Source: a virus
Taxonomy: Duplodnaviria; Heunggongvirae; Uroviricota; Caudoviricetes
Length of the DNA: 18,130 nucleotides
Direction: 5' to 3' (one strand)
IMG/VR virus record: IMGVR_UViG_2671180283_000002
Coordinates: 1-18,130 of that record
Part shown: positions 15,543 through 15,707 of the stretch, piece after piece
Numbering within the stretch: position 1 is the first letter of the stretch
Layout: the number at the start of each line of letters is the position of its first letter
Translations under genes and position numbers: made by a program
Notes under the pieces: generated by a model
The model's database searches: none
Told to the model about the DNA's origin: nothing
What the model saw: only the letters and a program-made list of their open reading frames with translations

Positions 15543-15707
15543 AATAACCAAAGTGAACTTTGGGGTGTGGTGAAGGGTTCATGGACGGGAATATGTCGCA
15601 CGTAAAGCGGCGAGGCCTGCGGGACTATTGCCGAATTGAAGTAGGCCGAAACAGGTCGAAATGGGTCTCCCACCTACCACACCACCAAAGTTCATCAGGA
15701 GGTCTAT

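Follow-up and report, generated by a model that had tools for sequence, protein, structure and literature searches.

A long-range stem in the N leader of a 933W/HK97-type phage: a probable ortholog of the RNase III-sensitive helix of phage lambda

The leader of the N gene in the phage DNA analysed here (a stretch of 18,130 nucleotides, hereafter the window) contains a long-range RNA stem. Judging from the sequence and position of its arms, this stem of a 933W/HK97-type phage is orthologous to the N-leader helix of phage lambda that is sensitive to RNase III, and is thus an essentially known control element. We put the probability that this stem works through RNase III and the autoregulation of N at roughly three in four.

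The stem and its setting in the early-left region

The window covers the immunity and early-left region of a lambdoid phage, and its + strand is the leftward (pL) strand. The elements follow one another in the order cI-like repressor, pL-like promoter, boxB of the P22/H-19B type, stem, Shine-Dalgarno sequence and N of the 933W/HK97 type (Table 1). The N of the window is about 99% identical to the N of 933W, a Stx phage, and 97-98% identical to that of HK97. The predicted start of the pL transcript lies in a region that has ATCAGCAGGA in common with lambda pL +1. The record of 933W has nutL annotated over the stretch homologous to the dyad at 15508-15523, and the nutL of the window has no evident canonical lambda boxA (CGCTCTTA). 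The boxB 15-mer of the window also lies upstream of the stem in many other pL leaders; in the window, 11 nt separate it from the 5' arm. The stem itself is without annotation in the records of 933W and related phages.

Table 1. Features of the early-left region of the window and tRNA-like inserts found in relatives
Feature	Position	Strand	Basis or remark
cI-type repressor	13420-14142	+	HTH_3 and Peptidase_S24 domains
Terminator-like hairpin upstream of pL	15219-15236		
pL-like sigma-70 promoter	15431..15459	+	Promoter scan: TTGACT, 17 nt spacer, TACTAT
Predicted pL transcript start	~15466, A of ATCAGCAGG	+	By homology; motif as at lambda pL
Short dyad GATTC-GAATAT-GAATC	15508..15523	+	5' of boxB; in MFE fold; H-19B/933W-type NUT feature
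nutL boxB hairpin GCGCTGACAAAGCGC, P22/H-19B type	15528..15542	+	Hairpin in folds
Local hairpin CCAAAG-UGAA-CUUUGG	15548..15563	+	-6.4 kcal/mol
Stem 5' arm TGAACTTTGGGGTGTGGT	15554..15571	+	Contains boxC-like GGGGUGUGG run
Insert ('cassette') enclosed by stem	15572..15675	+	104 nt
Stem 3' arm ACCACACCACCAAAGTTCA	15676..15694	+	Bulged A15684
N Shine-Dalgarno AGGAGG	15697..15702	+	
N antitermination protein gene, 127 aa, 933W/HK97/H-19B type	15708..16091	+	Pfam PF25694 N_peptide, E = 2.1e-15
tRNA-like insert, locus L136	5477-5565	+	ARAGORN
tRNA-like insert, locus L138	365-455	-	ARAGORN
tRNA-like insert, locus L261	Bracket ~37 nt downstream of boxB match 1475-1489	-	ARAGORN

The original prediction paired 15554-15571 with 15676-15694 over about 18 bp with one bulged base, and this proved exact, sequences included: 10 and 8 perfect Watson-Crick pairs lie on either side of the bulged A. 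The enclosed loop, which had been put at about 100 nt, measures 104 nt between the arms, and the 3' arm does end at 15694, 2 nt before AGGAGG at 15697-15702. With a terminal G-U the helix comes to 19 pairs and one bulge, and 3 more pairs lie past a small internal loop. The stem is present in both the MFE and the centroid fold of 15540-15720 (z = -3.34, with 0 of 200 dinucleotide shuffles as good), and when the partition function is computed for the entire predicted leader (15466-15745), all 18 pairs have probabilities of 0.95-1.0. The duplex of the arms alone has an energy of -28.7 kcal/mol. It provides about two turns of near-continuous double-stranded RNA, which is what E. coli RNase III requires of a substrate. 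When 15000-16300 was searched against Rfam with E values up to 10, the sole match that overlapped the stem was noise (bxd_1, 12.6 bits vs a gathering score of 75).

A strong hairpin in a leader region could also be a transcription terminator or attenuator, or an inverted repeat that arose by chance. There is no U-run after the stem, where the sequence reads UCAGGAGG, and the terminator scan gave no report of it; a chance repeat is excluded because the same helix has been kept in relatives by way of compensatory changes (see below). We attach next to no probability to either of these readings. Two open reading frames that overlap the stem, of 65 aa on the + strand (15560-15757) and 68 aa on the - strand (15467-15673), were also considered as coding sequence. 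This was rejected, since the interior is swapped for unrelated sequences of 14-134 nt in relatives and the variation is compensatory for RNA pairing.

Some features of the surrounding region deserve a record of their own. A sharp mosaic boundary lies at the predicted pL start (15464-15467), and from there on the window shares about 99% identity with 933W and other Stx phages. The operator/repressor side of this boundary differs from 933W, so that the window joins another immunity region to a nutL-N module of the 933W type; a match to mEp506 spans the boundary and covers at least 15460-15710 (97.6%). The position of lambda rexAB, after the cI-like repressor and ahead of the terminator that precedes pL, is taken by an ORF of 332 aa (14213-15211, + strand). 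It had no significant match in Pfam (aRib, with 17.9 bits, was below the cut-off) and none in PADLOC, and is a candidate for a lysogen-expressed exclusion or defence gene of unknown kind. Directly 3' of N, an ORF of 156 aa (16150-16620, + strand) belongs to no Pfam or PADLOC family, and its homologue in 933W is annotated as hypothetical (L0079).

Homology to the lambda helix and conservation in relatives

In lambda (J02459), too, the N leader carries this helix base, and it likewise lies between the boxB of nutL and the Shine-Dalgarno sequence of N. Window and lambda agree fully in the core of the two arms, CTTTGGGGTGTG / CACACC-A-CCAAAG, down to the unpaired A of the 3' arm. At the base of the stem the lambda arms are ...GCTTTGGGGTGTGTG.../...CACACACCACCAAAGC..., and the leader reads ...AAGGCTTTGGGGTGTGTGATAC...(~90 nt)...CTGCCACACACCACCAAAGCTAACTGACAGGAGAATCCAGATG. 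When the arms are compared, CTTTGGGGTGTGG / CCACACC-A-CCAAAG in the window corresponds to CTTTGGGGTGTGTG / CACACACC-A-CCAAAG in lambda. The two elements have in common the sequence of the helix base (CUUUGGGGUGUG / CACACC-A-CCAAAG) with the same bulged A, the position on the pL transcript, a variable interior that is looped out, and the end of the helix just 5' of the N Shine-Dalgarno sequence. They differ in the outer pairs, which are UGAA/UUCA in the window and only about 2-3 pairs in lambda, and in the inner continuation and the entire interior, of 104 nt in the window and about 90 unrelated nt in lambda. The gap from the stem to the Shine-Dalgarno sequence is 2 nt in the window, whereas it is 8 nt in lambda. 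Moreover, the boxB of the window is of the P22/H-19B type and its N protein comes from a different subfamily. In some viral contigs the insert of the window is found inside a nutL/N leader of the lambda type, at exactly that stem position.

We take the lambda stem between nutL and the N ribosome site to be an RNase III processing site that relieves the autorepression of N, presumably cut at +88/+89 and +197/+198, with a 2-nt stagger around the bulged A. This lambda N-leader RNase III site is said to have been treated by Steege et al. in 1987 (JBC), by Kameyama et al. in 1991 (Mol Microbiol) and by Wilson et al. in 1997 (Genes Dev) and in 2002 (EMBO J). Franklin, in 1985, reportedly found such a hairpin conserved in lambda, phage 21 and P22. 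It has been published that lambda N represses its own translation via nutL, about 200 nt upstream of N (PMC5725501), and that an RNase III mutant affects the regulation of lambda N mRNA (PMC8708148). In position, strand, arm homology, length and covariation, the stem of the window has all that can be computed for a lambdoid N-leader RNase III helix.

Relatives were collected by three scans of viral contigs that yielded more than 200 loci, two of them for the bracket of arms and one for the boxB 15-mer alone. When the arms alone were aligned, for 73 distinct pairs of arms from these contigs, 89.9% of the cells were paired, a part of which is ascertainment, given that the sequences had been selected for an anchored helix with at least 5 inner pairs. 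Both sides had changed in 15 of the 22 pairs. Compensatory cells numbered 238, whereas sliding the partner by 1-3 columns gave 26-48 and shuffling the columns gave 68 +/- 7. The ascertainment is offset by the positions that the selection did not require, and by a sample drawn independently of the stem, in which leaders were picked only by their pL start motif and boxB. Of these 68 leaders, 61 gave a duplex at least as stable as -30 kcal/mol when the 50 nt that follow boxB were paired with the 42 nt that precede the N start. The mean was -35.6, and shuffled 3' segments gave -20.2 +/- 5.6. The leaders that fell short had mis-called starts or were the very short P22 version.

Within the 73 arm pairs, TTTGG/CCAAA is invariant or nearly so, and the bulged purine is conserved, being A in more than 90% and otherwise G. 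The innermost conserved pairs take the forms GGUG/CACC, ACUG/CAGU, GUUG/CAAC and GAUU/AAUC. The N of H-19B is of the same type as that of the window, with 96.6% nucleotide identity over the aligned parts, and its leader keeps the outer arm TGAACTTTGGGGTG / CACCGCCAAAGTTCA around a 70-nt interior that differs; the inner arm is different yet complementary, GGTGAATGCAG/CTGTATTCACC (GAATGCAG / CTGTATTC). In phi80, GGTG/CACC has become GATG/CATC, and the outer pairs also differ (AATG/CATT). The P22-like helix, GAGAUGG.G.UUUGG.(C).GGUGAUG vs CAUCACC.A.CCAAA.G.CCAUUUC, has about 20 pairs and ends 4 nt before the Shine-Dalgarno sequence. Pairs of the G-U kind are frequent in the relatives, and helices are longer on the + strand than on the complement, which fits an RNA that acts on the strand of N.

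The arms are also places where homology to phage records breaks, as BLAST revealed. With phi80 and PA2/VT2phi_272, only 15559-15690 is shared, at about 91% identity and with different flanks, while in BP-4795 and several Salmonella phages the sequence shared with the window either stops at the 5' arm or begins only at the 3' arm. Mosaic boundaries that coincide with the arms, and the same insert with its inner arms in phi80 and PA2 between different flanks, could be read as a DNA-level feature, with the inverted repeats as the ends of a MITE-like element or as a recombination site that drives mosaic exchange. The arms persist, however, when the insert differs, every copy in the viral contigs examined lies at the same place in pL leaders, and no target-site duplication was seen. 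E. coli genomes with the insert have one copy in the median and four as the maximum, all of them in intergenic positions, and the G-U pairs and strand asymmetry described above point to RNA. Exchange at the arms is an expected by-product of shared homology. A MITE-like mobile element was rejected on copy number and on context, and we regard an origin of the stem at the level of DNA as very improbable.

Predicted processing by RNase III and control of N

By homology with lambda, cleavage of the stem would be expected, together with an effect on N. Once transcription from pL has passed the 3' arm, the 5' arm with its boxC-like GGGGUGUGG run would pair with it, looping out the apparently dispensable insert of 104 nt and setting NUTL beside the ribosome-binding site of N. 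The complex of N, Nus factors and RNA polymerase held on NUTL could then repress the translation of N, which would amount to autoregulation. RNase III would cut both strands near the bulged A, with predicted sites at 15563^15564 and 15686^15687, positions transferred by homology from the lambda sites. Cleavage would part NUTL from the N message, leave an unstructured leader of 21 nt and raise the synthesis of N.

The original prediction had offered a processing site, after the lambda N leader, or a switch that controls N translation. The first of these has been strengthened, given that what was proposed as an analogy with lambda is homology, with an identical stem base in the same position. 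The second, in the form of a switch that works by simple occlusion, is less likely, since the helix does not include the Shine-Dalgarno sequence, which the folds show as paired only in part. In the partition function, the probability that G15698 and G15699 are unpaired is 0.31 and 0.24, respectively, before processing, and 0.60 and 0.57 after it. This predicted shift in accessibility is only modest, so that a large effect would have to come from the repression mediated by N.

The stem might also be a scaffold only, which closes the variable insert and keeps NUTL near the ribosome site of N, or keeps the leader compact and nuclease-resistant, with no role for RNase III. It is the helix and its position beside boxB and the Shine-Dalgarno sequence that are conserved, not the insert, and the inserts do not exceed shuffled sequence in stability, as a scaffold would have it. 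But the sequence of the helix base, including the bulged purine, is conserved far beyond the needs of pairing, and it is identical to that of the lambda site that RNase III cleaves. A continuous helix of about 20 bp is, moreover, a typical substrate of this enzyme. We consider a purely structural role improbable.

Among other known systems, the lambda cIII and E. coli adhE leaders resemble the N leader in having a structure near the ribosome-binding site, and translation rises when RNase III handles this structure (PMC5371410). There, it is the ribosome site that is sequestered, or the enzyme works through binding, while the Shine-Dalgarno sequence of the window is outside the helix, and the effect expected is the uncoupling of the message from an upstream repressing complex.

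A second parallel concerns boxC, the consensus of which is GGUGUGUG. It has been listed as part of nut (PMC2724277), and in rrn operons it contributes to the RNase III stem that surrounds 16S rRNA (PMC8632103). In both nut and rrn, boxC is GU-rich, lies just downstream of boxA/boxB and pairs with a distant 3' partner into an RNase III helix, and in both a Nus complex tethered upstream could deliver boxC to that partner (PMC8632103). The rrn stem encloses a functional rRNA of 1.5 kb, whereas the stem of the window encloses an RNA that is short, hypervariable and apparently dispensable.

The leader holds a further element that bears on when the helix would form. CCAAAG at 15548-15553, just after boxB, repeats the word of the 3' arm, and its partner in the local hairpin, CUUUGG at 15558-15563, also makes up the outer segment of the 5' arm; the local hairpin thus competes with the six outer pairs of the long-range stem. 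The MFE structure of a transcript that stops short of the 3' arm includes the hairpin, and the predicted 5' cleavage product (15466-15563) has it at its 3' end. A perfect complement of 6/6 was found in 49 of 61 distinct upstream leader contexts, against 17% for shuffled upstream sequence. The hairpin covaries too, CCAAAG/CUUUGG becoming CCAAAC/GUUUGG in P22-like leaders, while lambda has CAAAGC/GCUUUG. The compensation in P22-like leaders leaves a G-G mismatch in the long-range helix, which argues for selection on the local hairpin independently of that helix. We infer that it may delay the formation of the cleavage site or, at the end of the 5' fragment after cleavage, protect the NUTL RNA that antitermination requires.

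Expression from pL begins with N, the level of which helps to decide between lysis and lysogeny; in Shiga-toxin phages with this type of N, the level also affects read-through toward late and toxin genes. If the control helix of lambda is kept, core base for base, in leaders of the 933W/HK97/H-19B type, in P22-like leaders and in that of phi80, growth-rate-dependent control of N by RNase III is then probably general among lambdoid phages, including Stx phages.

The interchangeable insert

Across the viral contigs, about 30 (27-31) unrelated interiors of 14-134 nt occupy the bracket (loci L006-L298), and P22 has almost no insert. The insert of the window is 89-100% identical across at least 5 different N/nutL contexts, and its class is found with N proteins that begin with MTRRT, MDAQT (lambda N), MLDIM, MIDDI (phi80) and others. 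The class of the H-19B insert occurs with N proteins that begin with MTRRT, MSRRT, MTVIT (P22 type) and others. Since each class of insert is found with several types of nutL and N, the arms are points of mosaic exchange. In complete E. coli genomes, the insert of the window was present in 498 of 5426 and was never annotated.

It is conceivable that the stem serves mainly as a processing signal, through which RNase III would excise the insert of about 120 nt as a stable, functional small RNA, the control of N being secondary. The high identity of the insert over at least 5 N/nutL contexts and its presence in 498 E. coli genomes speak for such an RNA, as does one internal helix, in which GGCCUG at 15614-15619 pairs with CAGGUC at 15652-15657 and pairs 65/102 and 66/101 change on both sides. 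The identity could, however, reflect recent exchange. Some 30 unrelated inserts fill the same slot, which is almost empty in P22, and their thermodynamics is ordinary: the inserts are not more stable than shuffles (mean z = -0.34; z = -0.13 for the class of the window), and there is no Rfam match. The known small RNAs of prophages (the AgvB/AsxR anti-sRNAs and the Pas sRNAs) were considered as candidates and rejected, as they are encoded near PR'/Q and not in the N leader.

ARAGORN found a tRNA-like cloverleaf inside the same bracket in three relatives (L136, L138 and L261; Table 1), with calls of tRNA-Gly(ccc), tRNA-Pro(agg) and tRNA-Pro(ggg). This counts in favour of a functional RNA. The acceptor stem of these inserts stacks on the conserved helix, but their anticodon loops are atypical, with, for example, a G at position 33 in L136. 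The same program, run on the whole window, gave no tRNA or tmRNA gene. On balance, the excision of a small RNA as the main purpose of the stem seems rather unlikely to us. T-arm-like GGTTCAAC motifs, for which ARAGORN made no full call, were also seen at two other loci, L144 and L073.

The RNase III-dependent control of N remains our preferred reading. The variability of the cassette, the tRNA-like inserts and the competing hairpin, whose functional roles are putative, are the only features that might be new. A bolder and, in our estimation, unlikely proposal is that the helix is a fixed 'socket' for interchangeable inserts, which RNase III would release as discrete RNAs, and that CCAAAG...CUUUGG...CCAAAG acts as a strand-exchange switch. 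If this were so, the 104-nt insert of the window would be a small RNA encoded by the phage and not a spacer, and the inserts that are tRNA-like could recruit further processing enzymes, RNase P for instance. During transcription the switch would determine when the cleavage site forms, and later it would give the NUTL fragment a 3' hairpin as a protective cap.

One further locus, L004 (VT2phi_272/PA2), has the cassette and stem with no N gene after them (1490-1930). In place of N there are a promoter-like TTGACT...TATATT and a terminator-like hairpin (~1745-1770), and a long, GC-rich, structured stretch precedes a gene of the Rha family. This layout may represent a different arrangement for antitermination or a regulatory RNA.
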